The notes below the pieces were generated by a model. The model made no database searches. It saw only the letters and a program-made list of their open reading frames with translations, and was not told the DNA's origin. Of a stretch of DNA of 64,000 nucleotides, positions 1 to 31,817 are shown piece after piece. Within the stretch, counting starts at the first letter, position 1. Each line of letters opens with the position of its first letter. Made by a program: the position numbers and the translations under genes. The stretch covers positions 1-64,000 of IMG/VR virus record IMGVR_UViG_3300008117_000088; one strand, 5' to 3'. The DNA comes from a virus.

Positions 1-110
1 AAGATCGCTTCCCGGATTTGCACGTTCATAAGACTTACGTCCTTTTTCATTTAGACCGCCTTTTTGATTTTTTCCTTCTTTGCGGGTCCATGCAGCAGTT
101 TTAGTAGCCA

Positions 111-506
111 TTAGATATACCTGTCCCTGTCTATATCCGCTTCAGCGGGTTTTAAGTCTAACTTAGGATTGTTTTCCATTGATCTACGAATTCTGTTTTC
201 TTTGCTACCGTACACGGGAGCGTTATTAGGGGCCTCTTCCATCAACCCTCTAAACTGTTGAGATCCCGGAGTATTAAGTTGTCGTTGGGCCCAATCTTGG
301 TCAATCTTGTCAGCAACCTTCGGATCAACCTTAGCAACCTTGTTTTCTGACATATGTTTTAATATTTCAGAAGCTGCATCTGGATGATAGTTCATTTTTA
401 CAGCCCTAGACGTCAAAGCCTTTTTTGCGGAATGGTCTTGCTTTCCAGTAGCCATTTGACTTAAGGTGCGCCCTTTGTACATGGAAACTTTTTTCTGTCT
501 AGGCAT
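111..506 (-). CDS. hypothetical basic protein (possible virion internal protein)
   Basis: ORF track; stop/start coupled to 506-706; K/R-rich. Confidence 0.6.
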   Translation of the reverse strand: MPRQKKVSMYKGRTLSQMATGKQDHSAKKALTSRAVKMNYHPDAASEILKHMSENKVAKVDPKVADKIDQDWAQRQLNTPGSQQFRGLMEEAPNNAPVYGSKENRIRRSMENNPKLDLKPAEADIDRDRYI

Positions 507-706
507 TATCGTCCCAACATATCTGTAGCTTGTTCAGAGACTTGATAGCGACCGAATGATGGACGTACACCGCCATAGATTCCGCCTTGAATAGAACGTG
601 TTCCATAGAACTCTTTCGCCCGAGACGACCCTGTACGTACACCTTCACCAAATGCACGTTCTTCACGTGTGCGTCCTAGTGCAGGATCTTTAATCTTCTT
701 TTTCAT
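506..706 (-). CDS. small basic hypothetical protein
   Basis: ORF track; operon-like packing. Confidence 0.55.
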   Translation of the reverse strand: MKKKIKDPALGRTREERAFGEGVRTGSSRAKEFYGTRSIQGGIYGGVRPSFGRYQVSEQATDMLGR

Positions 707-833
707 ACTTCTTCACAACTCCTGCATGTTGTGGTCCCCACATGCGCTCGCCGGGTTGAGTCTGTTCTTCTTTCTTTGCTTTGTAATCTGCCATTGAGAT
801 TACTTTGCCAAATTGAGTCTTGTTAGGTTCCAT
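690..833 (-). CDS. 47-aa hypothetical protein MEPNKTQFGKVISMADYKAKKEEQ...
   Basis: Translated by hand; TAATG coupling to upstream ORF at 833. Confidence 0.55.
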   Translation of the reverse strand: MEPNKTQFGKVISMADYKAKKEEQTQPGERMWGPQHAGVVKKYEKED

Positions 834-1201
834 TACTTGCTCTTCTTTAATGCACGTTGTGCGTTAGAACGCTTATTAGGATTCCATTGTGCCCATTGGA
901 TCATCTTCTGACGCTTCTTTTCTTTCTCAGCATCACTCTTTGCTCCACCCTTGCCTGTTACAGGACGGGCCTTTTGCCATTTGCCAACTTGTGCATCTCT
1001 TGCCTTAGTACCGGAACGAGTATTAGTTGTGGTTGCTACGAAATCTGGACTATTAGGATCAGTCTCAGCAAGAGCTTTCTTTGCATTTGCTTTGCGATTT
1101 GGATTGGCCATGGCCCACTGACGCCAGGTTTCACCTGTGCCTGTTTTAGGGGAAGAGTTCTTCCAGTCAGAGTTATCTACGCGGTCAGATTTCTTAGGCA
1201 T
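833..1201 (-). CDS. basic hypothetical protein with internal repeat (QWAxxNPNxxxNAxxAL twice)
   Basis: ORF track; TAAACT 6 nt upstream of ATG. Confidence 0.65.
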   Translation of the reverse strand: MPKKSDRVDNSDWKNSSPKTGTGETWRQWAMANPNRKANAKKALAETDPNSPDFVATTTNTRSGTKARDAQVGKWQKARPVTGKGGAKSDAEKEKKRQKMIQWAQWNPNKRSNAQRALKKSK

Positions 1202-1210
1202 GGAATAAGT

Positions 1211-1432
1211 TTACTTATCTAAAGGGGCGTCGTATGCCTTAATAGCTGCTATGAGATTTTGACGTATCTCAATAAAGCGCTCTGGGTGGTGGTTTATGAA
1301 ATGCTCAACCACAGACTTGACGCTTTTAGGAGGAGGCAGACAGCCGTTATTAAAGTCCCTATGGATGAGTCTTTGTAGATCGCCTACTTCATCATCCCGG
1401 TCTTCTTGCTCCATAAGCCATACCATGAACAT
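1211..1432 (-). CDS. YozE/SAM-like small protein
   Basis: F-x-x-WL-x-x-Q-x-DRDD-x-VGDL pattern recalled from YozE-like phage proteins. Confidence 0.5.
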   Translation of the reverse strand: MFMVWLMEQEDRDDEVGDLQRLIHRDFNNGCLPPPKSVKSVVEHFINHHPERFIEIRQNLIAAIKAYDAPLDK

Positions 1433-1469
1433 GGCATATAGGGTAAGTCAGCAAGGGGCTGAATTTGGT

Positions 1470-1670
1470 CTAAATCTTTTCGCATTCTGTGCGGATGTAG
1501 TCACGCAACTCAAATATTAATTCATCTGCTTCCATAGTGTCTTCATAGCCTTGTTCTTCAAGGTATTCGAAGAAATCACGAGATCCAACAAGGATAGGTA
1601 ACTCTCCGAGATCCGGATGCCAGATAACACCAATAATGTCATCTCTTTCAACAATAAACGGCTCTTTCAT
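1470..1670 (-). CDS. acidic hypothetical protein
   Basis: ORF track, start trimmed to ATG coupled with upstream stop (TAATG at 1670). Confidence 0.55.
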   Translation of the reverse strand: MKEPFIVERDDIIGVIWHPDLGELPILVGSRDFFEYLEEQGYEDTMEADELIFELRDYIRTECEKI

Positions 1671-1825
1671 TAATAACCTCCAAGGCATTGATCTGAATGC
1701 GTATGTATCCAGCGGGACTCATTGTACGCTTCCTTATTCGGAGCATATAACCAGAATCCACAAGCGCCACATTGACCACTCCACTCTTCCGCAAAGAAGT
1801 CGTACTCCATAAGCTTGTATCGCAT
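1670..1825 (-). CDS. 51-aa Zn-binding hypothetical protein (CGAC...HTH...C)
   Basis: Translated by hand: MRYKLMEYDFFAEEWSGQCGACGFWLYAP...HTHSDQCLGGY. Confidence 0.55.
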   Translation of the reverse strand: MRYKLMEYDFFAEEWSGQCGACGFWLYAPNKEAYNESRWIHTHSDQCLGGY

Positions 1826-1900
1826 GGGGGCCGACTCTACTCCCTAGGCTACTGTGTGACAAATTGAGGTGTTACCTACATTTGAGACCTGGCCCCCCTT

Positions 1901-1999
1901 TGTGATTTTGGCCACATTTAACCCTGGGGGGGTCAGCTTTGTGAGATGCGCCACATTATTACAAACCTACTTCCGCTAACTCAGCGTGTCTGCCATAGT
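1901..1999 (+). promoter_or_regulatory. early promoter module 1 with two CRP-like boxes
   Basis: TGTGA-N6-CCACA at 1901-1916 and 1940-1955; AAACCTAC; TTCCGC (1971)-17 bp-CATAGT (1994). Confidence 0.7.
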
Positions 2000-2041
2000 T
2001 CAACCATCAACACCGACCGAGTGTTGGTAAAGGGGCAACAA

Positions 2042-2326
2042 ATGGCAATCACAGCAGAAAACGCAAAGCGCATGATGTTAATCACCTCAAGCGCAAACCT
2101 CAGCGACGAGGACTTCCCGTTCTTTCGCAATCACATCACATCATTCAGCGAGTGGCTGGTATCCGAGGCAATCAACGACCTAGTGCGACTAGGTGTAGAT
2201 AAAGACCTTGCTTCCTCAATGCTCAACACCATCTCCCACATCTCAAGCATGGCGGGCGCAACCAATCTCTTTGATTACGGCGTGAGTGCCACAATCTTTG
2301 AGGAAAACGGACTTCGTGATGCGTAG
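2042..2326 (+). CDS. early hypothetical protein
   Basis: SD AAGGGG before ATG 2042. Confidence 0.7.
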   Translation: MAITAENAKRMMLITSSANLSDEDFPFFRNHITSFSEWLVSEAINDLVRLGVDKDLASSMLNTISHISSMAGATNLFDYGVSATIFEENGLRDA

Positions 2327-2480
2327 TCCTACTTACTATCGAATTCGAACACTTGTTCGGGTCTTATTCTGGACATCATTAGTCATAGGTATCTATTACC
2401 TAGCCACTCACATCAACTGGGTTGGCGATGGATACTGCTGGGGAACAATCACCGAGTGCTTCTTCGAGGAGGGGAAATGA
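2319..2480 (+). CDS. small membrane protein
   Basis: Hydrophobic segment LVRVLFWTSLVIGIYYLA; overlaps upstream stop. Confidence 0.65.
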   Translation: MRSPTYYRIRTLVRVLFWTSLVIGIYYLATHINWVGDGYCWGTITECFFEEGK

Positions 2481-2587
2481 CAGACGGCGAGATGATTGAC
2501 CAAATCATGGAATGGATCAACACGGACGGCGAACAGCTATCTGATGAAGATGTCATGAACAACATTAGGGAAATGCTCAAACAATAG
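2477..2587 (+). CDS. 36-aa acidic protein MTDGEMIDQIMEWINTDGEQLSDEDVMNNIREMLKQ
   Basis: ATGA overlap; SD GGAGGGG. Confidence 0.65.
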   Translation: MTDGEMIDQIMEWINTDGEQLSDEDVMNNIREMLKQ

Positions 2588-2602
2588 AGTTGCCCCACAA
2601 CA

Positions 2603-2634
2603 GCGGAGCGCCTGCCAATCGGTGGGCGCTTCGT
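2603..2634 (+). terminator. hairpin ending cassette 1
   Basis: GCGGAGCGCCTGCC-AATC-GGTGGGCGCTTCGT. Confidence 0.6.
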
Positions 2635-2648
2635 CTTGCTCGGCGAAA

Positions 2649-2789
2649 TGTTTGTGTTGGTCAGCCCACCCACCCTGACTCAACCCTAAAGGGAATAGGG
2701 GGGAGAGAAGCTCGAACAGATGTTCGGCCAGGAATGTGATGTAGATAACAACAAAGCCTATTCCGCTAACTGTGAGAAAGTGAGAAGGT
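2649..2789 (+). promoter_or_regulatory. early module 2
   Basis: TGTTTGTGTTGG 2649; CCCACCCACCC 2665; TGTGA-N6-TAACA 2735; TTCCGC 2761-17-GAAGGT 2784. Confidence 0.75.
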
Positions 2790-2837
2790 TCTCCTATCGG
2801 TGAAACAGAAGTAGCCGATAAGAAAGAAGGGGCAAAG

Positions 2838-3302
2838 ATGACCAAAGTCATCACTTACGGCTCAGCAGTAGAAGCGATAGACGCTCTCATGCTGGAGCAT
2901 GTAAATAACGCACCACTATCAGCAGACCTCGCTGAAGTTGTGGCGTTCGCAGTAAATAACGACCTACAAGTTCGGGATTATATTCTCGGATTACTACCTG
3001 ATGTTCTAACGGCACAAGGAGCGATTAGTTTCGTATCCGACCTGTTGCCACTCGTAGCGGAAGCCGACCGAGTTCCGTTCTACTCCGTATTATCCGCCTT
3101 CTACTCTGAAGCAGGGGATAACGACCTCGCCCACGCTTCACTATTCACAGCGCAGAGTCTAAATCCTGATTACTCTCTCGCTAAGTTGCTCTCTCGGGTT
3201 CTTGCCTCGGGTATGCCAATGGATTTCGCAAGCATGCGTGCGGAACTTCATCCGAAGGTTGTCGAAACCCTTACGGAGAATAGGGAACTGGTCATTTCCT
3301 AG
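2838..3302 (+). CDS. helical hypothetical protein (possibly DUF4192-like)
   Basis: SD GAAGGGG; VRD and YSLAKLL..L..G.P pattern. Confidence 0.65.
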   Translation: MTKVITYGSAVEAIDALMLEHVNNAPLSADLAEVVAFAVNNDLQVRDYILGLLPDVLTAQGAISFVSDLLPLVAEADRVPFYSVLSAFYSEAGDNDLAHASLFTAQSLNPDYSLAKLLSRVLASGMPMDFASMRAELHPKVVETLTENRELVIS

Positions 3303-3310
3303 AACTCACG

Positions 3311-3342
3311 CCGACCCCCACTCGCAAGGGTGGGGGGTTCGG
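3311..3342 (+). terminator. GC-rich hairpin with GCAA loop
   Basis: CCGACCCCCACTC-GCAA-GGGTGGGGGGTTCGG. Confidence 0.6.
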
Positions 3343-3371
3343 TGGATCGCGCCGGCCGCAGCTCGCGCAAA

Positions 3372-3494
3372 TGTTTGTGTTGAGACCCGCCCACCCTAGT
3401 CTCTGACTTACTTCGTAAGGGAGTTGTTGAGAGAGTTCGTGTGGCGCACATCACATCAAACCTACTTACGCTAACTAACGAGATAAGCAAAACT
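3372..3494 (+). promoter_or_regulatory. early module 3
   Basis: TGTTTGTGTTG 3372; CCCGCCCACCC 3386; TGTGG-N6-TCACA 3440; TTACGC 3466-17-AAAACT 3489. Confidence 0.75.
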
Positions 3495-3532
3495 AAGAGT
3501 GTTGGTGAAGGTCATCAACGGAAGGGGCAGTA

Positions 3533-3910
3533 ATGAAAGTAAAAGTGCCTGTAAATCTGGTAATCGCTGGTCTGGAACGCAGAGTAGCAGAAAACCGAGA
3601 GGTATCAGCACGCAACCAAATCGTTCGTGATAAATACGAGCAAGACAAAAAATCATGGGCAGAAGCGGTTGGCAAACTACCACTAGAAATAGATGATGTT
3701 AGTTATTCCACATGGCGAAACTCAGTATCTATTTCTTACAAAGTTCCAAACGGAACACGCATACCTGATGAACCACGACTTGGCGATTTAGAAAGCGAGT
3801 TGGGTAGCCATGAGGTTGATGAAATCGCTAATGCTGTTCGTATCTTAGGCATGAGCGAAGATGAGTATGTATCAGCAAGCACCATGAAGGAAATCGGAAG
3901 GTATCTCTAA
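3533..3910 (+). CDS. early hypothetical protein
   Basis: SD GAAGGGG; ORF track. Confidence 0.75.
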   Translation: MKVKVPVNLVIAGLERRVAENREVSARNQIVRDKYEQDKKSWAEAVGKLPLEIDDVSYSTWRNSVSISYKVPNGTRIPDEPRLGDLESELGSHEVDEIANAVRILGMSEDEYVSASTMKEIGRYL

Positions 3911-4395
3911 TGGGGTTGGACATGTATCTAGGCGCTCGCTCTACAAATAGCGAGTATCAAGAGTTGGGTTATTGGCGCAAGGCTAACGCTGTTCATGGTT
4001 GGTTCGTTCGTGAGTGCGCTAATGGATTAGATGAGTGCCAAGAGATTTTTGTATCTCGTGAGCAACTTCTAAAACTCCGTTCGGATTGTAATAATGCTCT
4101 CGCAAACCGAGAGAACGCAGTTCCGAATAATGAGGACAATGTAGTTATCAAGCAACCTGTTGGTAGCGGTCAAGACCTTGCTCAGTTCATCATGGAGAAC
4201 ATGAAAGCCGAGCAACAAAAGATTGGCACTACTCTGGTGAGTGATGACCCACTTCAGCCAACGGCTGGTTTCTTCTTCGGCTCAACCGAGAAAGATGAGT
4301 GGTATTACAACGACCTGATGGAAACCATTGACATCATAGATAAGGCGCTCGCCTTAGGTGATGATTGGCAAGTTATCTACCAAGCAAGTTGGTAG
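3910..4395 (+). CDS. conserved phage protein (MGLDMYL...YWRKANAVHGWF...YQASW family)
   Basis: Recognisable conserved phage motif; TAATG coupling. Confidence 0.8.
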   Translation: MGLDMYLGARSTNSEYQELGYWRKANAVHGWFVRECANGLDECQEIFVSREQLLKLRSDCNNALANRENAVPNNEDNVVIKQPVGSGQDLAQFIMENMKAEQQKIGTTLVSDDPLQPTAGFFFGSTEKDEWYYNDLMETIDIIDKALALGDDWQVIYQASW

Positions 4396-4404
4396 GTTGC
4401 CCCA

Positions 4405-4439
4405 AGCGAGTTGCCCCCGAAAGGGGGCGCTCGTTTTTT
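4405..4439 (+). terminator. intrinsic terminator
   Basis: GCCCCC-GAAA-GGGGGC stem plus T-run. Confidence 0.8.
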
Positions 4440-4464
4440 AGGGAACGCCAAACCCGAAGCCACT

Positions 4465-4582
4465 TGTTTGTGTTGGCTCCCACCCACCCTGAGCCTGATC
4501 CCTAAAGGGATAGGGAAAGAGAGCTCGTGTGATGTGGATCACTACAAAGCCTATTGTGCTAACTAGTGCTAGGCATTAGATT
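4465..4582 (+). promoter_or_regulatory. early module 4
   Basis: TGTTTGTGTTGG 4465; CCCACCCACCC 4479; TGTGA-N6-TCACT 4528; TTGTGC 4554-17-TAGATT 4577. Confidence 0.75.
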
Positions 4583-4619
4583 GGGTCTAGTTAGGAGATA
4601 CCTAACGGAAGGGGCAGAC

Positions 4620-4721
4620 ATGATGCTAATGGCGACATGTGTAGAGTGCGAGAGGGTGTTCAACCTTCTTGATGAGAATGATGCGAATGAGGTGGCATAT
4701 GGACACGATTGTGAGTCCTGA
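4620..4721 (+). CDS. 33-aa Zn-binding micro-protein (CVEC...GHDC)
   Basis: SD GAAGGGG; MMLMATCVECERVFNLLDENDANEVAYGHDCES. Confidence 0.7.
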   Translation: MMLMATCVECERVFNLLDENDANEVAYGHDCES

Positions 4722-4929
4722 GTCTCAAAAGTTTTACTCTAAGTATTATGGCGATTTAGTGGGCGCCACGATTCTTAGTTATGACGGGATGGTAGAGGAT
4801 GAGTTTGGAATGTATCCATTCCCTACATTTACTGTCCGGTTCAAGGATGGGCAGAAAGGTCAGATTCAGATCTATGCTGATGAGGAGGGTAATGGTGGCG
4901 GGTTCATCTCCGGATTAGCCTTGCCATAG
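4699..4929 (+). CDS. hypothetical protein (DEEGNGGG motif)
   Basis: ORF track; start either 4699 or GTG 4711. Confidence 0.65.
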   Translation: MDTIVSPESQKFYSKYYGDLVGATILSYDGMVEDEFGMYPFPTFTVRFKDGQKGQIQIYADEEGNGGGFISGLALP

Positions 4930-4938
4930 TAGATTTCG

Positions 4939-5037
4939 AGGTAGGTGCGTCAAAGCGGTTTATTTCCTTTCTTGCTCCCGCCAAGCGCATTCATGATCCG
5001 CCACACTTCTCGGGGAGATGTAGCTGCGTGCCTACCT
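4939..5037 (+). ncRNA. candidate structured 3'-UTR/small RNA
   Basis: AGGTAGGTGCG (4939) can pair with CGTGCCTACCT (5027), enclosing further stems and a pyrimidine loop. Confidence 0.35.
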
Positions 5038-5070
5038 ATTCCACAGCTGAGGCCGCCGGCCGCGGGGAAA

Positions 5071-5184
5071 GTTTGTGTTGGCCCACCCGCCCCGTTAAGG
5101 GAGTTGTTGTTATTCAGCTGTGATTCAAATCACAAGAGAAACTTTACAAACCTACTACCACGAAAGAGATATACATGAGAAGGT
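5071..5184 (+). promoter_or_regulatory. early module 5
   Basis: GTTTGTGTTGG 5071; CCCACCCGCCCC 5082; perfect TGTGA-N6-TCACA 5119; TACCAC 5156-17-GAAGGT. Confidence 0.7.
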
Positions 5185-5223
5185 TCACCTACCTAGTCAG
5201 GGCGACTAGAGAAAGAAGGGGTT

Positions 5224-5832
5224 ATGGGTTATTACATTGACCTAGTAGATGCAGAGTGGGAGATAACTGAATCTCCTGAATCTCTTGCAACTATTAGAGA
5301 GATGCCAACTAAATACCATGCTATTAAGCGTGGTGGCTCATCCAATGGCGAGAAGTGGTTCTCCTGGATGAATGATACTGATATCGAAACCGCGGAGACT
5401 GTAGAGAGTGTCTTCAATCAACTCGGATTCGAGACTGAAAAAGTAGACGGCGGGTTCAAACTTGCTTACTACAATAGCAAAACTGGTCAAGAAGATTTAT
5501 TTTTGGCGGTTATGGCTCCCTTTACCAAGGATGGTTCATACATTGAATGGCGAGGTGAGGACGGCGCGTTATGGAAGTTTGAAATCCACAACGGTCGCAT
5601 GTTTCGCTCCGAGTCTGAGATTATCTGGACCAACTCCCAACCGTATTCTTACTGGCACTATGATTTAGAGCCAGCAACAATGCAAGGACGTCAGATTAAT
5701 ATTGACCCACTTGCTCCCGCTGATGAGTTAGCGCAAGCGCTCAAAACTGCTAAAGAATGGGATGATGCGGACCAGGCATACTATGCCAAACTCCGTGCTG
5801 AACGTGAAGAGGCAGAGAAAGCCAACGCGTGA
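5224..5832 (+). CDS. early hypothetical protein (GSYIEWRGEDG motif)
   Basis: SD GAAGGGG; ORF track. Confidence 0.75.
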   Translation: MGYYIDLVDAEWEITESPESLATIREMPTKYHAIKRGGSSNGEKWFSWMNDTDIETAETVESVFNQLGFETEKVDGGFKLAYYNSKTGQEDLFLAVMAPFTKDGSYIEWRGEDGALWKFEIHNGRMFRSESEIIWTNSQPYSYWHYDLEPATMQGRQINIDPLAPADELAQALKTAKEWDDADQAYYAKLRAEREEAEKANA

Positions 5833-5963
5833 GAACTTTGCACGTATGTTGCTCGCACATACAGCATGAGAACTATTGCCCATGCTGTATGAGCGAGTGC
5901 GAAGCAGAGAAGGATTCTGGAATGCAAGGTCCTTACTGCAAGTGCAACAGATGTAGCAGCTAA
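5829..5963 (+). CDS. possible 44-aa Cys-rich micro-protein
   Basis: GTGA overlap; 9 Cys; overlaps strong hairpin 5851-5898. Confidence 0.4.
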   Translation: MRTLHVCCSHIQHENYCPCCMSECEAEKDSGMQGPYCKCNRCSS

Positions 5964-6001
5964 GGCTGCTGATGATCCAAGCTATGCCCCGCTAGGATCC
6001 A

Positions 6002-6041
6002 AACGAGCTCGGCCGCTGCCCCGGCCGGGCATCGTTTTTTT
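6002..6041 (+). terminator. intrinsic terminator
   Basis: CTCGGCCG-loop-CGGCCGGG stem plus T7. Confidence 0.75.
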
Positions 6042-6073
6042 AGGGCGCCAAATCTTATTTCCCGAATGCCTAA

Positions 6074-6210
6074 TGTTTGTGTTGGCCCGCCCTCCCCATT
6101 TATATACTAGGGAATATTCATATATTCATTCAGCTGCTGAAGAGAGCTGCAGTCATGTGATGTAAATCACTACAGACCTACTTACGCTAAAAGAGAGATG
6201 GACCTATGGT
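6074..6210 (+). promoter_or_regulatory. early module 6
   Basis: TGTTTGTGTTGG 6074; CCCGCCCTCCCC 6086; TGTGA-N6-TCACT 6156; TTACGC 6182-17-TATGGT 6205. Confidence 0.75.
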
Positions 6211-6253
6211 TCAGTCACTGGTTACAGATAGTAACTAAGTGAAGGGATAGAGA

Positions 6254-6508
6254 ATGCGTACTCTGAGAGAGATAGCGCTGGAGATAGATTGGGAATGCCG
6301 GGGTAAGTCTTGGTATCCATATGCAGAAGCATATGTCACTCCCATGATGTCACTCGATACCATGCAAGACCGGTACTTCGAGGATTCAGCAGAATCAATA
6401 GTCTCCTATGCACTGGCTAATCTCCAGTCATGGAGAGGAGACAATGCCCGTCGAATTAAGGCGGAACTCAATGCAATGCTCAAGTCAGCAAGGAAGGTGA
6501 ATGCATGA
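6254..6508 (+). CDS. conserved phage early protein (WRGDNARRIKAEL motif)
   Basis: SD GAAGGG; recognisable small phage family. Confidence 0.75.
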   Translation: MRTLREIALEIDWECRGKSWYPYAEAYVTPMMSLDTMQDRYFEDSAESIVSYALANLQSWRGDNARRIKAELNAMLKSARKVNA

Positions 6509-6957
6509 CAGCTGAGACATACAATCCGCATCAGCTAGTAACGTTGCGGGATATCAATGACGGGGCCGAAAGCTTCGTCATCCATAAAGCTACAGACCTC
6601 GAGTGGAAGCTCGAGACAGCTAAGCTCAATCGCCGGGAGCTGGATACAGCTCAAGCTAAGATTGGAGCTATCACTTCGGAGATGACCAGTGAAAGCTGGT
6701 ATCACTCGAATACAGATAAAGATGAAGTACTAAGTAAGCTCGAAGAGATTCTGGGCGTCAACCCTACAGCTACGATCAGCATCACAGCTACGATCGAGGT
6801 GTTCATTACAGCTGAGGTGCCGCTGAAAGAGCTCGACAGCTTCGATTCAGATTCACTGATCCACGACTCGATCACGATAGATGCGAGCGCTTGGGGATCA
6901 GAAGTCAATGTAGATGACTGGAATCTACAAAGCTCAGATTGGGAGGAACAGAGCTAA
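6505..6957 (+). CDS. acidic hypothetical protein (AGCT-saturated gene)
   Basis: ATGA overlap; ORF track. Confidence 0.7.
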   Translation: MTAETYNPHQLVTLRDINDGAESFVIHKATDLEWKLETAKLNRRELDTAQAKIGAITSEMTSESWYHSNTDKDEVLSKLEEILGVNPTATISITATIEVFITAEVPLKELDSFDSDSLIHDSITIDASAWGSEVNVDDWNLQSSDWEEQS

Positions 6958-7008
6958 CTCAGAGACAACGCACCCCGGGCCAGCTTCGCGGCGGCTCGGG
7001 GCTCGCGT

Positions 7009-7122
7009 TGTTTGTGTCGGCCCACCCACCCCATAGGGAATATATATAAGCTGCGGGCTCGGCCTGGTGTGAGATAGATCACTGCAAACCTACTTACACG
7101 TAGAGGGAGAGTCATATACCTT
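7009..7122 (+). promoter_or_regulatory. early module 7
   Basis: TGTTTGTGTCGG 7009; CCCACCCACCCC 7021; TGTGA-N6-TCACT 7068; TTACAC 7094-17-TACCTT 7117. Confidence 0.75.
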
Positions 7123-7144
7123 AAGCAATGAAGAGAGGGGTCTC

Positions 7145-7846
7145 ATGAAACTTAAACGGTCCAAAGATCGTAAAGTGGCTAATAGTCTTACTCCTAATGG
7201 GAAGACTGCAAGAATTGCTAATTCTTTCGGTTTACCCGCGGGGAGAGAGTACAGCTGCCCGGCGCAGACTTCAATTTGCGCTCGCATATGTTATGCCGGC
7301 AAGCTGGAGAAAATCTATCCAACAGTGCGTACTAACCTTATGCACAATTGGGAGATGCTTAAAGATGCAGATCATGACACGATGGAGAGTCTACTCGATG
7401 AGATGATTGTGGAATTCAAGGCGGAATGTGACAAGTGGTCCGCGCCTAAAGAATTTCGCATTCACTGGGACGGGGACTTCTTCTCCTCAGATTATGCATT
7501 CGCATGGAAGCATGTGATCATGAACCATCCGGACGTTCGCTTCTGGGTCTACACACGTGTAGAGTCTGCAGCTTATATGCTCCGGAACCTAGAGAATCTC
7601 ACTTTATACTTCTCCACTGATAAAGAGAATCTCGAAAGCGCTCAACGCCTACAGCGTGAAGGCGTGTTACTGGCAGGATTACACGATACTTTCGATCAAG
7701 CCAAGGATATGCTCCTGGCGCTAGGCGAGAGATCTGCAAAGTGTCCCGAGCAACGCAAGCAAATTCCCCTGGAAGGCGCCTGCATTGCATGCAAGATTTG
7801 CGTCAAGGGCACTAACAATATAACGTTCAGCATTACTAAGAGATAG
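7145..7846 (+). CDS. GP88-family protein (radical-SAM-like Cys motif)
   Basis: SFGLPAG...SCP...C..ICYA, RIHWDGDFF and WVYTR motifs. Confidence 0.75.
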   Translation: MKLKRSKDRKVANSLTPNGKTARIANSFGLPAGREYSCPAQTSICARICYAGKLEKIYPTVRTNLMHNWEMLKDADHDTMESLLDEMIVEFKAECDKWSAPKEFRIHWDGDFFSSDYAFAWKHVIMNHPDVRFWVYTRVESAAYMLRNLENLTLYFSTDKENLESAQRLQREGVLLAGLHDTFDQAKDMLLALGERSAKCPEQRKQIPLEGACIACKICVKGTNNITFSITKR

Positions 7847-7854
7847 GGATCAAT

Positions 7855-8124
7855 ATGGGATACACAACAGCGTTAGACTTAGCCGGCCAAATTCACCTGG
7901 ATCAAGGCCTGGCCCATCACTTAACCGGCAATCATTATCCGCCGGTACCGTTAACGATGGTCGATCCATGCAAAGCTGCAATCGATGCGTACCTGGATGA
8001 AGACTACGACCGGGAGATAGAGCTACCGGATCCAATTACGTATAAGGGCCGCACTACAGCGCCGGCACGGGCGATAGTAGATCAGCATCACTTGCACCCA
8101 TTCGTAGAATCACTGCAAGAATAA
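7855..8124 (+). CDS. conserved actinophage protein (HLTGNHYPPVP...HHL)
   Basis: ORF track; motif typical of small phage proteins. Confidence 0.7.
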   Translation: MGYTTALDLAGQIHLDQGLAHHLTGNHYPPVPLTMVDPCKAAIDAYLDEDYDREIELPDPITYKGRTTAPARAIVDQHHLHPFVESLQE

Positions 8125-8170
8125 TAGAGTTGCTCCCCTAGGTACTACCCTTCCACCTAGGGTCGAGCAC

Positions 8171-8214
8171 GGAGAAGCCGCGTTGTTTCAGGTCAGCGCG
8201 GCTTTCTTCTTTTT
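8171..8214 (+). terminator. intrinsic terminator
   Basis: GAAGCCGCGTTG...CAGCGCGGCTTTC plus T-run. Confidence 0.75.
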
Positions 8215-8245
8215 AAAAGGGAAATGCCTACTCCCAAAAGCCAAA

Positions 8246-8331
8246 TGTTTGTGTTGACCCTCCCACCCCTCATCCCTTCGGGATAGGGTGCGGCCGAAAA
8301 GTCAAGTAGCTTTGCTGTGATATTGCTCACA
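8246..8331 (+). promoter_or_regulatory. module 8, left half
   Basis: TGTTTGTGTTG 8246; CCCTCCCACCCC 8258; perfect TGTGA-N6-TCACA 8316. Confidence 0.7.
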
Positions 8332-8334
8332 CAG

Positions 8335-8485
8335 TGAGAGAGAGGCTCGGCCAGGCCGCCTATTCCAGTTAGTTTCACGTGAAACAAGCGATCTTCGAAG
8401 AAGAGAGCATGAATAAGAGAGATAGCTATTGGCAGAGAGAGCAGAGAGAGAAGAGAGAAGCCAAAAAGAGAGATAAGAGAGATAG
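8335..8485. repeat. GA-rich low-complexity tract
   Basis: Repeated GAGAGA/AAGAGAG; partial complement CTCTCTCTCTGC near 8666. Confidence 0.6.
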
Positions 8486-8711
8486 CCGACATTAAATGTC
8501 GACAAATCGACTAGTCGATTAGGCTACTGCATTGACCGGTCATGGCCTCCCCGGCTGTGCAGCCAGCTTTACAGCCTCGATCGGCTGAAACTATCCGATA
8601 TCACTGCAAGCTAATTGCTACCCAATGGCTGGCAGGGCAAAGAGATGTCAGTCCCTCTCTATATCCTCTCTCTCTGCATGTATAAGCCAATCTATTTGGG
8701 GCCGATTTTTC

Positions 8712-8766
8712 TGTGAGTCAAGTCACAGCAAACCTACTACCCCTAAGACGGCATATACGTAATGAT
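8712..8766 (+). promoter_or_regulatory. module 8, right half (promoter)
   Basis: Perfect TGTGA-N6-TCACA 8712; GCAAACCTAC; TACCCC 8738-17-AATGAT. Confidence 0.7.
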
Positions 8767-8803
8767 TAGAAAGTAAGGGCAAGAACTCAACGAAAGGTAT
8801 CAA

Positions 8804-9076
8804 ATGAGTCTCAAATGGGAACTCGATTATCACCAAGGTAAGTACAACGAAGCCAAGGCTAAGGAAAACGAAGCGTTCCACGCAATCCTCAAGATCATCA
8901 CTGATTTAGGCGGAAAGCGTGAGCACGTAGACAAGGCGATCGGTCTATGGGTAGATGGCACTTTGGCATCCAACGATATGGGATGGCACAGAGCATTTAG
9001 GTCTGAGGCTGAGGACAAGATTCAAGAACTTCGCAAGTTAGTCGATATGGATGAAGACGCGGAGTTGTTGAAATGA
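8804..9076 (+). CDS. hypothetical protein
   Basis: SD GAAAGG; ORF track. Confidence 0.7.
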   Translation: MSLKWELDYHQGKYNEAKAKENEAFHAILKIITDLGGKREHVDKAIGLWVDGTLASNDMGWHRAFRSEAEDKIQELRKLVDMDEDAELLK

Positions 9077-9180
9077 CGGGCAGACAAGTAGTCTGTCCTA
9101 CCTGCGGTAAAGAATTGGAGGTGAGGTCGGGCATCTTTGCCCACCAAACCCTCGCCCGCCATATGAAGGAGCATGAATGA
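9073..9180 (+). CDS. 35-aa C2H2-type zinc-finger micro-protein
   Basis: MTGRQVVCPTCGKELEVRSGIFAHQTLARHMKEHE; ATGA overlaps at both ends. Confidence 0.7.
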   Translation: MTGRQVVCPTCGKELEVRSGIFAHQTLARHMKEHE

Positions 9181-9431
9181 GCACTGATGATATATCTGTA
9201 GGCGATGCAATTATTGTAAAGGCGCTGTTGAACGGCACCTTTACTGATCCCGATGGAAACAAAGCAACATTAACTGTTAAGGGTTTTGTTGGTGCAAATA
9301 TCATTGCAGCTCGTGTGGCGTTGCTCACGCAACCACGCCCACTATCTGAAAGTGATATCACTGAGATTGTTAAGTTTCTCAAGGATGCAGAGACTGCATT
9401 GAACATGCTTGAGGACAAGGAACAAGAATGA
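9177..9431 (+). CDS. hypothetical protein
   Basis: SD AAGGAG; ATGA overlaps. Confidence 0.7.
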   Translation: MSTDDISVGDAIIVKALLNGTFTDPDGNKATLTVKGFVGANIIAARVALLTQPRPLSESDITEIVKFLKDAETALNMLEDKEQE

Positions 9432-10063
9432 AAGCGGTGTCGTTATTCGCCGGGGTCGGAGGTTTCGATCTTGCATTAGAACGTGCGGGTGTACCTGTTG
9501 TTGCATCTGTAGAGATTGATAAGCATGCACGTGGTGTACTGCAACAACAATTTCCTAACACAACATTATTGGAGGATGTAAAAAATGTCACAGGCGATCA
9601 ACTTAGAGAACTCGGATTCGAAGGTTCTGACGGAATTATTGTCGGAGGCTTCCCGTGTCAAGACCTCAGCGTTGCTGGTAAGCGAGCAGGTCTTGCTGGA
9701 GGTAGAAGCGGACTCTTCTGGGAAATCTGTCGCATCCTCGACGAAACGAAAACGAAATGGTTCGTCCTCGAAAACGTCCCCGGTCTTTTGTCATCTAACG
9801 AAGGACGAGATATGGGAACCGTCATCCAAGCGTTGGTTGAGCGCGGGTATGGGGTCGCATACAGGATTCTTGACGCTCAATACTTTGGAGTCGCCCAAAG
9901 AAGACGTCGTATCTTCATTGTCGGATGTCTTGGAGACAACGGGCGAGCACCTGCAGAAGTACTTGCTCTCATCGAAGGCATGCGAGGGTATTCTGAGGCG
10001 ATCAACCAAAAAGGGAAAACAACTTCCTCCCTTGCTTCACTCAGCTTTGGAGAACATGACTAA
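9428..10063 (+). CDS. DNA (cytosine-5) methyltransferase, N-terminal catalytic part (motifs I-VIII)
   Basis: FAGVGG (I), GGFPCQD (IV), ENV (VI), QRRRRIF (VIII). Confidence 0.92.
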   Translation: MKAVSLFAGVGGFDLALERAGVPVVASVEIDKHARGVLQQQFPNTTLLEDVKNVTGDQLRELGFEGSDGIIVGGFPCQDLSVAGKRAGLAGGRSGLFWEICRILDETKTKWFVLENVPGLLSSNEGRDMGTVIQALVERGYGVAYRILDAQYFGVAQRRRRIFIVGCLGDNGRAPAEVLALIEGMRGYSEAINQKGKTTSSLASLSFGEHD

Positions 10064-10082
10064 TGTGGTTCATAAAGAGTAG
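9585..10082 (+). CDS. overprinted MTase beta-like subunit in alternative frame
   Basis: SSLSDVLE...KYLLSSKACEGILRRSTKKGKQLPPLLHSAL, recalled pattern of M.EcoHK31I-beta-like polypeptides; true start uncertain. Confidence 0.6.
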   Translation: MSQAINLENSDSKVLTELLSEASRVKTSALLVSEQVLLEVEADSSGKSVASSTKRKRNGSSSKTSPVFCHLTKDEIWEPSSKRWLSAGMGSHTGFLTLNTLESPKEDVVSSLSDVLETTGEHLQKYLLSSKACEGILRRSTKKGKQLPPLLHSALENMTNVVHKE

Positions 10083-10602
10083 GCGTGCAAAGGACGTGGA
10101 AGATTATGAAACTTGGGTTGATGCGGAGGTTACTCCTACATTGAACGCATTCGATAACAATGGCGATACACGATCAACGGTGCTTATCTTCTACACTGGT
10201 ACCTTTGGTGAAGTACGAGTACAGGGAGATGTGATTAATACGTTGCCGGCAAAGATGGGAACGGGTGGTAATAACACTCCTATGATGGCATTCCCTATCC
10301 AGGGAACAATCATCGGTCGCAGTGATACTGCTGGACCACAAGGCAAAGGATTTGGTGATTCTACTGATCCTATGTACACAATAGATACCGTTGGTGGTAA
10401 TGCGGTTGCAACTCCTGCAATGGTGCGACGTTTAACTCCGTTAGAATGTGAGCGCCTACAAGGGTTTCCCGATAACTGGACTGCATCACAGTCTGATTCA
10501 CAACGATATAAACAAATGGGCAATGCGGTAGCAGTACCGGTTGTTCAATGGATAATAGATAGGTTGGTTGACGTTGAAACAAGATTTAATGCAAATGCTT
10601 AA
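10063..10602 (+). CDS. cytosine MTase C-terminal part (TRD repeats plus motifs IX-X)
   Basis: RRLTPLECERLQGFP and YKQMGNAV; TAATG coupling. Confidence 0.88.
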   Translation: MWFIKSRRAKDVEDYETWVDAEVTPTLNAFDNNGDTRSTVLIFYTGTFGEVRVQGDVINTLPAKMGTGGNNTPMMAFPIQGTIIGRSDTAGPQGKGFGDSTDPMYTIDTVGGNAVATPAMVRRLTPLECERLQGFPDNWTASQSDSQRYKQMGNAVAVPVVQWIIDRLVDVETRFNANA

Positions 10603-10771
10603 GTCTCAAGTAAAAGACATGTATGGAAAGCACGGCTTAAAAGCTGTGGATGAGTATTTAGATCAAAACTACAAGTTAATACCTTGGGAGCAATGCTACG
10701 AGTGCGACAAGATTACGCCCCGTGATCCACGCACACTAAAGTGTTTCTTTGAGGAGGATCATGAGTTCTAA
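10595..10771 (+). CDS. small Cys-containing hypothetical protein
   Basis: ORF track, start trimmed. Confidence 0.55.
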   Translation: MLKSQVKDMYGKHGLKAVDEYLDQNYKLIPWEQCYECDKITPRDPRTLKCFFEEDHEF

Positions 10772-11174
10772 ATGGGACTATGCTTTTTACGATCGTAACT
10801 CACAGCCTTGCACTTTAAAGGAATGGAGCGAAGAATTCGGTAGTCCATATGCATTCAAGAAGGATGTGTTTGTAAAAGATTATCGAGTATTAACCAAGTG
10901 GACCGGAGTTGATATGCCGGAATACGATTGGTTGCAAAAGAATCAATTCAGTTCTAAGAACTGGAAACCAAACTCTAAGCCATCACCGTTTGTTTCATAC
11001 GTATGGAATGCTGACGGGGAAATCGTAGAGTCAAAGCGTTATCAAACTATTGAACGTGCATACAAAGGTCATGCTGAATTAGTTCAGCGCTTTGCTAAGG
11101 AAGACCTTGGTGTGTATCATGTGCCTGTAGTCCTACAAGATATGGAGGAAACAAATGGCGAAGAAAAAGATTAA
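10761..11174 (+). CDS. hypothetical protein
   Basis: SD GAGGAGG before ATG 10761. Confidence 0.7.
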   Translation: MSSKWDYAFYDRNSQPCTLKEWSEEFGSPYAFKKDVFVKDYRVLTKWTGVDMPEYDWLQKNQFSSKNWKPNSKPSPFVSYVWNADGEIVESKRYQTIERAYKGHAELVQRFAKEDLGVYHVPVVLQDMEETNGEEKD

Positions 11175-11463
11175 AGTCTTTAAAGTTTCGCTTACAAACA
11201 ACTTTGAAAAAGGTGGCGGTTGGCTGTGCCACGTTCGTTGTTATGATGAACGTGATCAGTACGAAGCATCTTTTACAGATGTAATTGGTCAGTCAGACTA
11301 TTCTGCTTGGAAAAACCCTTCAGCAGCTAAGCGTCACGCTAAAGCTATGGCTCAGAAATGGACCACCAAGAAAAGCGTAAAGATGATTGCTGGTACAACT
11401 ACCGATTCAAAGGGCAAGCCTGCAACATTTCATGGCGAGTTTACTTTTAAAGTCGACGCCTAA
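11155..11463 (+). CDS. hypothetical protein
   Basis: SD GGAGG; ORF track. Confidence 0.7.
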   Translation: MAKKKIKVFKVSLTNNFEKGGGWLCHVRCYDERDQYEASFTDVIGQSDYSAWKNPSAAKRHAKAMAQKWTTKKSVKMIAGTTTDSKGKPATFHGEFTFKVDA

Positions 11464-11472
11464 ATAGAATAA

Positions 11473-11520
11473 CCCCCAGCATTAAGCATCGGCTGTGACC
11501 GACATGCTGGGGGCTTTTCT
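11473..11520. terminator. terminator at convergence of plus and minus transcription
   Basis: CCCCCAGCAT...ATGCTGGGGG stem followed by T-rich run. Confidence 0.75.
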
Positions 11521-11781
11521 TTAGTACGACAATATTTCTGGCAGTACTTCTTTACCTATAATTCTGTGCTTTCTTCTGTACTCATCTCTTTGATCTGTCG
11601 TAGTGCCCGCCCATATTCCTTGAACTTTATTCTCTATTGCGTATTTAAAACATTCATCTTGAACTGGGCAGTTTTTACATATTCTCTTCACATGACCCAA
11701 CTGTTGATAATGCATTCCTTCATCAGGAAAGAACAATTCAGTGTCAAGTCCTAAACATGAAGGGGTGCCACTAAAGCGCAT
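11521..11781 (-). CDS. whiB: WhiB-family transcription factor
   Basis: C...ELFFP...CKNCPVQDEC...GIWAG motif. Confidence 0.9.
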   Translation of the reverse strand: MRFSGTPSCLGLDTELFFPDEGMHYQQLGHVKRICKNCPVQDECFKYAIENKVQGIWAGTTTDQRDEYRRKHRIIGKEVLPEILSY

Positions 11782-12019
11782 TACTCTCCGGTTTCACTGT
11801 TCTTAATGAAGCAATTTTATCTGGTCTAAATCCAGACCAATGATTGTTATTGCTGACCACAACCGGAGTGTATTTATACCCCATAGAAACTACTAGATCA
11901 TAAGCATCTTTGTTTTCAGTTATGTCAACAGTATTAAATTCAATACCGTATTTGTTTAAATACTTTTTAGTTGCATCGCATTGTGGGCAATCTGGTTTTG
12001 TATATACCGTAGTGCTCAT
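11771..12019 (-). CDS. nrdH: NrdH-like glutaredoxin
   Basis: VYTKPDCPQC and WSGFRPDKI. Confidence 0.92.
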   Translation of the reverse strand: MSTTVYTKPDCPQCDATKKYLNKYGIEFNTVDITENKDAYDLVVSMGYKYTPVVVSNNNHWSGFRPDKIASLRTVKPESNAL

Positions 12020-14178: not shown

Positions 14179-15645
14179 TTACTCTTCGATTGCGCCCTTA
14201 ATTATCTGAGTTGTCTGGTCCTCATTGAGTCCTTCATTAGGTAACTCTTTAAGAACTTGAGCCTTCTCCCCAAAAATTTGGGATAGAACTCCGGCAGATC
14301 CTTGGCGCTCTACAGTCATCCGAATGAACTCTCTTGAGTCATCCAATTCCTTAGTTGTTTTGATAAGTTTGAATAACCTATCGATCTCTTGCGATACATT
14401 GGGGTCAGCGTATCCGCCGTTCATTTCCTCTGCAAATCGCATAAAAGCTACCCTTTGACCCTGCATTTCAATGATTGCATTGATCAAACTCTTAAGTTGT
14501 TCTTTAGTCTTAACCTCTACTGGAAGCTTAAAGGCGCAGGTATTTTGAGGTTTAAATGCTGGACAATTTGATGCTACAAAGCATGTATCGCACTGTCGCA
14601 AACTACTATCTCTGGTTTGCATAACTGGTACATCTTTAAGTACATCGTTACCTGAATCATCCTTCTCAATAATGGTCTTAACACCAAAACCAAACACTGG
14701 AAGATTGGTCATTTCCTCTGGATTTCGCGGTTCAAGTTTCCGCATCTCAACCCCTGACCTATCCGATATTGCGGGTAGGTTTTCCGCAAAGTCTTCACCA
14801 GCTGGATCCTCGAAACTATCGTATATGTTCGGATCTTTGGTCATACTCAACCTCGTTTCTAGTTGGTCAAACGACCAAACCGCTAACTTGCATAGTTCTT
14901 CAGAATCATCCGCTACGATCTTTTCGAAGCTTAAATTCGCCTTTTCATAAATTGCTTTATGACGAGGCCTGGCCTGTTCTTTCATGCTTTTTGGATACCG
15001 GACCAATCTTGTACCGTCCCAAACAATGGTCTCACCTCTAGTCATAGGTGACAGCCAAGACATGGTGCTGGCGGTCTCTACGGGCACCTGACGCAGGTTA
15101 TCTGGTCGAATGGTCCCCATTGCATGGAGTCTGGTCTCGTGCTTGTTCTTAAGCCCTCTGGCGGTCCTAGAAAGCCATACAGACTCGTCTATGGCTTCGC
15201 CTGGTATGGATATATCCAAATACCGTTCTGCCAGTTCCTCAAGCCCAGACTGCCCGCTTTCGGTCCTCCAGACCGGCAAGAACTTGGCTGGTGGAACCTC
15301 GCCCCAGACGGTATCTCGTTGATCTCGTATAAAGTCAGGTCCAACTTGATGGTGCGCTATCTCTGTGAAGTAGGTAATTCGGTCTATGTTGTTCATTATG
15401 AACTCTTCATAGTCTGCCGCAAACTCTTCAAGGGCTACTCGTTCTAACTCTTGAGTCTTTGGTATGCCGGGGTGAACCAGAATTGCCATATCCTCAGGAA
15501 AATAGTTAGCTAACAGGTATGTTTTAGTTTTAGGCAATCCGCGTTTGCTGGCTCTCCAATAGCTAAACCCAACTGCCGTAGCTCCGGCTGATCCAAGCAG
15601 TAGCCGATTACTAGGGACCTCAGCCCCTAGGTAAAAAAGTCTCAT
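14179..15645 (-). CDS. TGT/DpdA-like TIM-barrel protein with C-terminal Cys4 and helical domain (apparently degenerate)
   Basis: RLHAMG...VPVETASTMSWL...RGET resembles the HxxG...SxDSSSW region of TGT-like folds; CDTC..NC...C. Confidence 0.45.
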   Translation of the reverse strand: MRLFYLGAEVPSNRLLLGSAGATAVGFSYWRASKRGLPKTKTYLLANYFPEDMAILVHPGIPKTQELERVALEEFAADYEEFIMNNIDRITYFTEIAHHQVGPDFIRDQRDTVWGEVPPAKFLPVWRTESGQSGLEELAERYLDISIPGEAIDESVWLSRTARGLKNKHETRLHAMGTIRPDNLRQVPVETASTMSWLSPMTRGETIVWDGTRLVRYPKSMKEQARPRHKAIYEKANLSFEKIVADDSEELCKLAVWSFDQLETRLSMTKDPNIYDSFEDPAGEDFAENLPAISDRSGVEMRKLEPRNPEEMTNLPVFGFGVKTIIEKDDSGNDVLKDVPVMQTRDSSLRQCDTCFVASNCPAFKPQNTCAFKLPVEVKTKEQLKSLINAIIEMQGQRVAFMRFAEEMNGGYADPNVSQEIDRLFKLIKTTKELDDSREFIRMTVERQGSAGVLSQIFGEKAQVLKELPNEGLNEDQTTQIIKGAIEE

Positions 15646-22834: not shown

Positions 22835-23107
22835 CTACGTGGTTTTTACTTCGAATACGATGGCCGAAATCTGACCATCATGGCTTTCGATGCTGGCAAA
22901 ACCTGGAACGCATACTAGATCGATGCCTCGTGGAGCGGTGTAACCGCGAGCAATAGCAATGGCTTTTACAGCTTGATTGACTGCTCCGGCTCCTACAGCT
23001 CTGATCTTGCATCCACGTGTTTCATACACGCTGTGTGCAATTGCTGAGGCAACGGATTGTGGGTTTGATCCTGCGCTTACACGTAAGATCTGTTCTTCTG
23101 TAGACAT
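22835..23107 (-). CDS. spoVS: SpoVS-family (Alba-like) protein
   Basis: LRVSAGSNPQSVASAIA...AVGAGAVNQAVKAIAIARG...GIDLVCVPGF matches the SpoVS signature. Confidence 0.9.
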   Translation of the reverse strand: MSTEEQILRVSAGSNPQSVASAIAHSVYETRGCKIRAVGAGAVNQAVKAIAIARGYTAPRGIDLVCVPGFASIESHDGQISAIVFEVKTT

Positions 23108-25697: not shown

Positions 25698-26005
25698 TCT
25701 TCGAGTGTCTTCCCGTTCTTGGTCGCCTTACGCTTAAGAGCATTACGCTCTCTGTGGCTAAGACCGCCCCATATGCCGTGTTGTTCATCGTTTTGGTCCG
25801 AATACAGTAAGCACTCTATTCGCACAGGACATTCTGCCTTACCATCCTTGCCAAAGCAAACCGCCTTGGCTTTATCGGCAATAGGCTTATATTTAGTTTT
25901 ATCTCTGGGGGGAAACCAGTAATCAGTCTCGGGACTTGAGCACATGCCGCGACACTTGGCTTGGTATCGCCACTTTTCTACGCCTTCGTCTTCGTACAAG
26001 AGCAC
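25679..26005 (-). CDS. whiB: WhiB-family transcription factor
   Basis: AKC...WFP...AKAVC...CPVRIEC...GIWGGLS..ER. Confidence 0.9.
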   Translation of the reverse strand: MLLYEDEGVEKWRYQAKCRGMCSSPETDYWFPPRDKTKYKPIADKAKAVCFGKDGKAECPVRIECLLYSDQNDEQHGIWGGLSHRERNALKRKATKNGKTLEEWVKKK

Positions 26006-31735: not shown

Positions 31736-31817
31736 TGAGATCCCTCTCGTTAAGTGGTTAGAGGGTATAACCTAACAGACCCTACCGACAAATCCAATAG
31801 GGTTTGTATATGTCCGA

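Follow-up and report, generated by a model that had tools for sequence, protein, structure and literature searches.

Crp/GlxR-type boxes on a repeated early promoter module of a contractile-tailed phage are likely activator sites

The left end of the phage genome IMGVR_UViG_3300008117_000088 raises a simple question: why does one 16-bp palindrome, TGTGA-N6-TCACA, the type of site used by regulators of the Crp/GlxR family, stand before promoter after promoter, and which protein would bind it there? Our analysis covers bases 1-64000 (the window, 64 kb) of this 96,030-bp IMG/VR record, which has 114-bp direct terminal repeats, a GC content of 44% and a rating of complete. The genome belongs to an uncultured phage with a contractile tail, as it encodes a tail sheath and a baseplate J protein, and its genes for replication and metabolism include a family A DNA polymerase, a class II ribonucleotide reductase, RecA, a primase and a DnaB-type helicase. 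Its closest named relatives are Streptomyces phages, with a polymerase identity of 38%, and megablast and blastn searches against named phages returned nothing useful. The minus strand carries nearly all genes; the exception is a plus-strand block of small uncharacterised genes (2042-11463) that starts ~2 kb from the left terminal repeat. The position of this block near the repeat and its small-gene, plus-strand makeup suggest that it is the early region.

The palindromes, which we refer to as boxes, are strongly enriched and confined. When at most one mismatch is allowed, the window contains 11 copies of the pattern where 2.28 +/- 1.33 would be expected, and none of 100 shuffles reaches 11. 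Ten of the 11 sites lie within 1901-8727, each in non-coding DNA, and they begin at exactly the places that an initial annotation of this DNA had given (1901, 1940, 2735, 3440, 4528, 5119, 6156, 7068, 8316 and 8712), with those at 5119, 8316 and 8712 being perfect, as it had stated. The eleventh, at 9577, is inside a methylase gene, and the remaining 32 kb of the genome hold one further site, at 80638. These are the only two hits outside the island, and the motif does not occur at equal density in the late regions; 10 of the 12 sites genome-wide fall in 7% of the genome (binomial p = 2e-10). With up to two mismatches, the window contains 33 sites against 31.65 expected, which is the level of chance, and the signal is therefore carried by near-perfect sites only. 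Crp/GlxR sites are defined as a 16-bp palindrome with at most one or two departures, and the ten sites have 0-1 mismatch. Position counts additionally reveal the inner preferences of GlxR sites, with T or C at position 6, A or G at position 11 and a central TA. An exact IMG/VR search with the box-plus-core pattern gave no match.

Eight rightward promoters can be aligned on a conserved CAAA(C/G) anchor 3' of the box, and this alignment reveals a module of nearly fixed geometry. The gap from box to anchor is 1 nt in six of the eight, 6 nt at 1940 and 12 nt at 5119. A -35 hexamer follows 4 nt after the anchor; it begins with TT or TA and matches the consensus at only 1-3 of six positions. A likewise poor -10 hexamer, which keeps only A2 and T6, lies exactly 17 nt past the -35, and these two bases are present in all eight promoters. 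The initial annotation had described this geometry as a 10-nt gap between box and -35 in six of eight promoters (15 nt at 1940 and 21 nt at 5119) and a 17-nt spacing to an N-A-N-N-N-T -10 throughout, and both measurements hold. The seventh base after the -10 hexamer is a purine in seven of the eight, and in six a hairpin of -6 to -8 kcal/mol has its foot no more than two bases from the predicted start, with an unpaired purine-rich ribosome-binding site 3' of the start hairpins. As the stem-loop stands exactly at the predicted start, it provides independent support for the register. Numbered from the predicted starts, the palindrome spans -61 to -46 and the CAAA(C/G) anchor -44 to -40. The box centre falls at -53.5 in six of the eight promoters, which bears out the earlier remark that it lies near -53 and outside the classical CRP positions; the remaining two have theirs at -58.5 and -64.5. 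Relative to the standard register, box offsets of +11 and +44 nt stay on the same helix face and the offset of +5 does not. A generic sigma-70 scan found none of the eight rightward promoters, indicating that their cores are weak. Each cassette ends in a terminator-like hairpin.

All eight promoters are on the plus strand. Promoter 1 (1940-2006) joins a box at 1940-1955, centred at -58.5, to CAAAC at 1962, a -35 at 1971-1976, a -10 at 1994-1999 and a predicted start at 2006. It has a distal second site, box 1 (1901-1916, one mismatch), centred at about -97.5 and thus 44 nt upstream of the standard register. A near-identical copy of box 1940 is kept in the distant relatives G001 and G002. Promoter 5 carries a perfect box at 5119-5134 centred at -64.5, 11 nt upstream of the standard position, followed by a -35 at 5156-5161, a -10 at 5179-5184 and a predicted start at 5191. 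The box centre is at -53.5 in all of the others: promoter 2 (box 2735-2750, -35 2761-2766, -10 2784-2789, predicted start 2796), promoter 3 (box 3440-3455, -35 3466-3471, -10 3489-3494, predicted start 3501), promoter 4 (box 4528-4543, -35 4554-4559, -10 4577-4582, predicted start 4589), promoter 6 (box 6156-6171, -35 6182-6187, -10 6205-6210, predicted start 6217), promoter 7 before the GP88 gene (box 7068-7083, -35 7094-7099, -10 7117-7122, predicted start 7129) and promoter 8 (perfect box 8712-8727, -35 8738-8743, -10 8761-8766, predicted start 8773). The leaders at 2006-2041, 2796-2837, 3501-3532, 4589-4619, 5191-5223 and 6217-6253 have a stem-loop at the 5' end, with stem sequences that vary from one cassette to the next, and after it a conserved ribosome site rich in purines (GAAGGGG-like). 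These stem-loops are probably 5' stabilisers of early mRNAs; a search of 1-12000 against Rfam returned zero family matches.

What the box does is indicated by a comparison with a close relative that lacks most boxes. Relatives were gathered from IMG/VR by a GP88 protein search, which gave nine loci, and a polymerase search, which gave 80, and tblastn with all open reading frames (ORFs) identifies G006, G008 and L009 as close. L009 shares the cassettes (73-85% protein identity) and the CAAAC anchor with this phage, but six of its promoters lack a box. At the same register, these six match TTGACA at 5, 3, 5, 5, 5 and 5 of 6 positions, and A/T-rich DNA takes the place of the box. The L009 promoter at 11765 keeps its box, and its -35 is also poor. 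On average, box-bearing promoters match TTGACA at 2.5/6 positions and box-less promoters at 4.7/6 (Mann-Whitney p = 4e-4), and the difference persists when this phage alone is set against L009 (p = 8e-4). The box is thus exchangeable for a strong -35 and therefore behaves as an activator site. A weak core promoter is also what characterises class I promoters, and we infer dependence on an activator from it. These sequence comparisons lend good support to an activator role of the box on early promoters that are weak and of host type.

The initial annotation had placed such boxes before every early promoter. This applies to the eight rightward promoters, but not to a strong leftward, divergent promoter at 1862-1834 (minus strand), which combines near-consensus -35 and -10 hexamers and a 17-nt spacer with no box in the standard register, and which is the only promoter of the island that the sigma-70 scan detected. 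The boxes at 1901 and 8316 are also not simple promoter boxes. The box at 8316-8331 is perfect and belongs to an inverted module (8305-8331, minus strand) with a leftward CAAAG and a good -35; this module is an inverted copy of the one at 8712 (repeat I1, 27 nt, 81%), faces it across a 380-bp GA-rich spacer, and has no convincing -10. The leader of the leftward promoter at 1862-1834 is only ~8 nt long before an ATG at 1825, and the first leftward ORF encodes a 51-amino-acid Cys-rich protein that is not conserved in relatives. The facing modules (8305-8331 and 8712-8738) are part of a 670-bp non-coding hub (8130-8800) that also contains GA-rich repeats at 8402-8486 and a perfect 16-bp palindrome near 8505-8520. 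Its counterpart in L006-L008 has five boxes, three of them abutting. The hub might serve as an origin or a switch region, or it might encode a non-coding RNA.

A palindrome repeated many times across an early region could also be the operator of a phage-encoded repressor, serving early shut-off or silencing in immunity or in an early-to-middle switch. Phages phiC31 and L5 have many repressor sites in their early regions, and two of the boxes described here (1901 and 1940) lie in a divergent control region, with others clustered in the 8130-8800 hub and in the matching region of relatives. Operators in arrays of the phiC31 or L5 type, however, overlap promoters or lie inside transcription units and are accompanied by a repressor gene, whereas these boxes are upstream of the -35 and overlap neither the core promoter nor the transcript. 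A site at -53 without such overlap, together with the inverse relation between box and -35 strength that an activator predicts, does not fit a repressor operator. Furthermore, neither an integrase nor a repressor-like gene is present among the ORFs scanned. We regard the repressor explanation as quite improbable.

If the boxes activate, the promoters need both a polymerase and an activator. The complete genome contains no match to a Crp-type helix-turn-helix (HTH), a cyclic-nucleotide-binding domain, sigma-70 region 2 or 4, or a T7-type RNA polymerase, so that the absence of a Crp-family gene noted earlier for the window extends to the whole genome. We considered a promoter for a phage RNA polymerase of the T7 or N4 kind and rejected it, since there is no RNA polymerase family match, giant ORF or sigma factor; one of the polymerase negatives, that for PF00940, is weak because the control for it matched nothing anywhere. 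With no RNA polymerase or sigma factor of the phage, the host RNA polymerase with its primary sigma factor would have to read the module. One could then ask whether the palindrome, with no regulator of its own, is simply part of the promoter; RNA polymerase itself might recognise it, for instance as a hairpin or UP-like element, or an alternative sigma factor of the host might do so. It does lie at the place of an UP element, -40 to -60, where L009 has its A/T-rich tract. A directly read element would not be expected to shift by +5, +11 and +44 nt relative to an intact core, as the box does, and its half-sites are strictly conserved in sequence and show no covariation. Given also that the phage has no polymerase or sigma factor of its own, we give direct reading only a very slight chance.

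The distribution of the boxes among relatives bears on the nature of the binder. Counted over whole records against a reversed control, sites number 15 versus 2 in G006, 14 versus 3 in G008, 8 versus 1 in G007 and 8 versus 1 in G009, and in all four the arrays are clustered in the small-gene region. The tblastn comparison places G007 and G009 in a different phage group that has only a few genes in common with this phage. No array is found in G010, in the complete genomes G001, G003 and G004, or in the partial G005, which belong to the same polymerase family. G001, G003 and G004 have replication and structural genes in common with this phage and a different early module, which indicates that the arrays belong with the early module and that the family as a whole can do without them. 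The arrays thus travel with the early module and are shared by two groups that are nearly unrelated in other respects. All three sets have the same box logo, with invariant half-sites, mostly T or C at position 6, A or G at position 11 and a central pyrimidine-A step. It matches the Corynebacterium glutamicum GlxR consensus, TGTGANNTANNTCACA (PMC4254451). Upstream of GP88, an alignment of four phages has the box and the GTTTGTGT element described below as its sole invariant islands. Box centres are spread between -44 and -125 in the second phage group, where automatic calling of the -10 is unreliable.

A phage-encoded binder should follow the same distribution. No HTH family was found among ~80 ORFs scanned with Pfam or PHROGs, and the box-bearing relatives have no Crp HTH. 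Five loci are common to both box-bearing groups (3533-3910, 6505-6957, GP88, 7855-8124 and 94664-94852), and GP88, 7855-8124 and 94664-94852 also occur in box-less phages, leaving only 6505-6957 and 3533-3910 as absent or nearly absent from box-less relatives. The 150-amino-acid product of 6505-6957 has a phyletic pattern that fits the arrays, but it is strongly acidic and was rejected as an unlikely DNA binder. The 125-amino-acid product of 3533-3910 (ORF 3533-3907) was also rejected, as its model (predicted local distance difference test score, pLDDT, of 80) has a long helix, a beta-hairpin and further helices with no HTH and no significant PDB match. The small Cys-rich ORFs 1670-1825, 4620-4721 and 9073-9180, the last of which encodes 35 amino acids with a C2H2-like Cys/His pattern, were set aside since they are not conserved in G006, G008, G007 or G009.

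The most economical candidate for the binder is instead a regulator of the host. Two WhiB genes (11584-11763 and 25736-25972) point to an actinobacterial host, as WhiB is considered exclusive to Actinobacteriota and their phages (PMC10202952), and GP88 and DUF4192 domains are also consistent with such a host, probably a low-GC aquatic actinobacterium. When the ribonucleotide reductase gene was used as a host probe in genome contigs, the sole return was a Bacillota fragment. A host Crp/GlxR-family regulator is favoured because it would be present at the entry of the DNA and because its specificity is conserved enough to account for identical boxes in unrelated phages; on this sequence evidence, we assign it a probability of about 0.55. 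The boxes would then be upstream activator sites of a promoter module repeated eight times that drives the rightward early cassettes. Host RNA polymerase and its primary sigma factor would read core elements that are too weak alone, a dimeric protein bound to the box would most likely supply the missing affinity, and the polymerase alpha subunit's C-terminal domain would probably dock on the CAAA(C/G) stretch. That an actinobacterial Crp can activate from an upstream site is known from whiB1 of Mycobacterium tuberculosis, where the site is at -58.5, and in the same species cyclic AMP (cAMP) raises Crp DNA binding only slightly (PMC2844151). Gating of the phage promoters by cAMP, and with it the sensing of host nutrients that the initial annotation proposed, would reach further than the sequence evidence does. 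A metallophosphatase-like ORF at 20995-22167 was considered as a cAMP phosphodiesterase and rejected, since it is an SbcD-type exonuclease.

Several points weigh against a host regulator. Classical CRP sites are centred at -61.5, -71.5, -82.5 or -92.5 in class I promoters and at -41.5 in class II promoters. The predicted centres here (-53.5, -58.5, -64.5 and -97.5) depart from the class I positions, which lie on the same helix face as RNA polymerase, and the predominant -53.5 is neither class I nor class II, being 8 bp from -61.5 and half a turn from the mycobacterial activating site at -58.5 (PMC2844151). In L006-L008, three boxes abut with a centre spacing of 16-17 bp, too close for Crp dimers to occupy all of them simultaneously. 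It is also possible that 7-deazaguanines in the DNA, hinted at by a gene described below, alter the reading of the box in the major groove. The complete family members G001, G003 and G004 do without arrays, the G007 and G009 records are 44% and 20% complete, which limits the comparison of gene presence and absence, and about half of the ORFs are unannotated, so that a phage binder may hide among them.

These points turn attention to a phage-encoded or virion-delivered dimeric activator of the Ogr/Mor type, under which the rightward genes would be delayed-early, with either an injected protein or a product of the leftward promoter switching them on. The late promoters of phage P2 that depend on Ogr have a dyad near -55, and the combination of a fixed -53.5 centre and a weak -35 is closer to them than to the classical CRP positions. 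Mor, which acts at the middle promoter of phage Mu, recognises a 16-bp element that contains inverted repeats of 5 bp (PMC4390567). The strong, activator-independent promoter at 1862-1834 could make such an activator first, the abutting triple boxes of relatives would suit a small protein, and the travel of the arrays with the whole early module and their absence from G001, G003 and G004 are as expected. Many small ORFs are unannotated, including the Cys-rich 1670-1825, 4620-4721 and 9073-9180. Yet these Cys-rich ORFs are conserved in none of the four array-bearing relatives, the leftward ORFs adjoining the boxes are replaced in L007, and the sole shared early proteins whose distribution matches the arrays are the acidic 150-residue protein and the 125-residue protein without a DNA-binding fold. 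Additionally, an operator specific to a phage would be expected to drift between groups, yet the logo is identical in them and equals the Crp/GlxR consensus. We consider an activator of this kind unlikely, and a host Crp/GlxR-family regulator remains our preferred binder.

A second host regulator may also be read at these promoters. The LexA SOS box of Gram-positive bacteria and actinobacteria is TCGAAC-N4-GTTCGA (PMC3381160), and predicted sites that agree with this definition lie at 2345-2360 and 2712-2727, each with one mismatch (two against 0.14 expected). The site at 2712-2727, scored as TCGAAC-N4-GTTCG, is 7 nt upstream of box 2735. Perfect LexA boxes occur in the relatives L006 (5405), L007 (5427) and L009 (3809 and 6301); those of L006 and L007 occupy the same module position, and those of L009 stand where this phage has Crp-type boxes. 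Their placement suggests that LexA is read here as well, and the module promoters seem to gather sites for regulators that are conserved in the host. Taken to its end, this would mean that a lytic-looking actinophage hands its whole early programme to a host Crp-type activator, acting at eight promoters from -53.5 in a new mode of contact with RNA polymerase, and to a blocking LexA, so that entry into infection is computed from the metabolic and DNA-damage state of the cell. We offer this extended proposal tentatively and consider it doubtful as a whole.

The early region contains a further repeated element. Between 2649 and 8256 the plus strand has seven copies of (T)GTTTGTGT(T/C)G, each with a C-rich tract on its 3' side. 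The element is conserved family-wide, and every copy stands past the terminator of a cassette, with a box 55-85 nt downstream. The sequence GTTTGTGTTG occurs 9 times in the window against 0.19 expected, with positions at 2650, 3373, 4466, 5071, 6075, 8247, 43743 and 55998, and at 64716, 72216, 79881 and 89485 in the rest of the genome. The 9-mer TTTGTGTTG is present genome-wide in 14 copies on the plus strand versus 1 on the minus strand, irrespective of gene orientation, and is also kept in G001 and G002, two distant relatives in which both orientations occur. The GTTTGTGTTG/TTTGTGTTG element could be a protein site or an orientation signal; we rejected it as a promoter, as there is no -10 at constant distance. 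Elsewhere, ATCGGACAT and TTGTCGG-N11-TAnnnT recur at 31736-31817, upstream of the minus-strand gene 31343-31735, and at about 80630-80700 of the genome. Both are also found, together with GGCGTGTCGC, on promoters of the second phage group (L010 and L013), and the three may be middle-promoter signals.

Three further genes are of note. A SpoVS-family protein is encoded at 22835-23107 (E 1.5e-29), and a 49-amino-acid ribbon-helix-helix-like protein at 31818-31967 is kept family-wide, including in box-less members. A DpdA-like gene (queuine tRNA-ribosyltransferase-like, PHROG 887) lies at 14179-15645, with no recognisable preQ0 synthesis genes adjoining, and this transglycosylase gene hints at 7-deazaguanine modification of the DNA.

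If a host Crp-type protein is indeed the binder, abundant freshwater actinophages would make the start of infection conditional on a global regulator of the host, and lysis of dominant lake bacteria by virus would be linked to host physiology. The eight promoters would also offer natural material, with one non-classical activator position, for studying contacts between actinobacterial Crp and RNA polymerase. In the literature that could be searched, no paper turned up that describes Crp-type boxes arrayed on the early promoters of phages. This window contributes the fixed -53.5 register, the trade-off with the -35 in a close relative, the predicted starts at 5' hairpins, the LexA boxes at the same position and a test of gene presence and absence that yields no phage candidate.

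Among known systems, the module resembles class I promoters of the Escherichia coli lac type and the CRP1 site of M. tuberculosis whiB1 at -58.5, which likewise place a 16-bp TGTGA-N6-TCACA upstream of the -35 of a weak core. Class I promoters are activated via the alpha subunit of RNA polymerase, and the same would be expected here. Counted from its predicted start, box 1940 is centred at -58.5, as in whiB1 (PMC2844151); six of the eight boxes, in contrast, are at -53.5, which is not a described activating position, and the site recurs here on eight viral promoters. The GlxR regulon of C. glutamicum, with its consensus TGTGANNTANNTCACA (PMC4254451), has identical half-sites, the same central pyrimidine-A preference and an actinobacterial setting, whereas the host in the present case is probably a low-GC aquatic actinobacterium. 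P2 Ogr and Mu Mor, the latter with a 16-bp dyad at -43.5 (PMC4390567), also act at a fixed dyad upstream of or at a poor -35 that is common to one temporal class of genes; unlike the present case, these activators are phage-encoded and serve middle or late genes, whereas here no conserved phage candidate is found and the genes look early. Phages whose control promoters read host CRP or LexA are also known; the lysis-lysogeny switch of phage T1, for instance, responds to CRP (PMC6737242) and resembles our proposal in that a phage promoter reads a global regulator of the host. In such known cases one or a few control promoters do so, whereas here it would be the whole early array.

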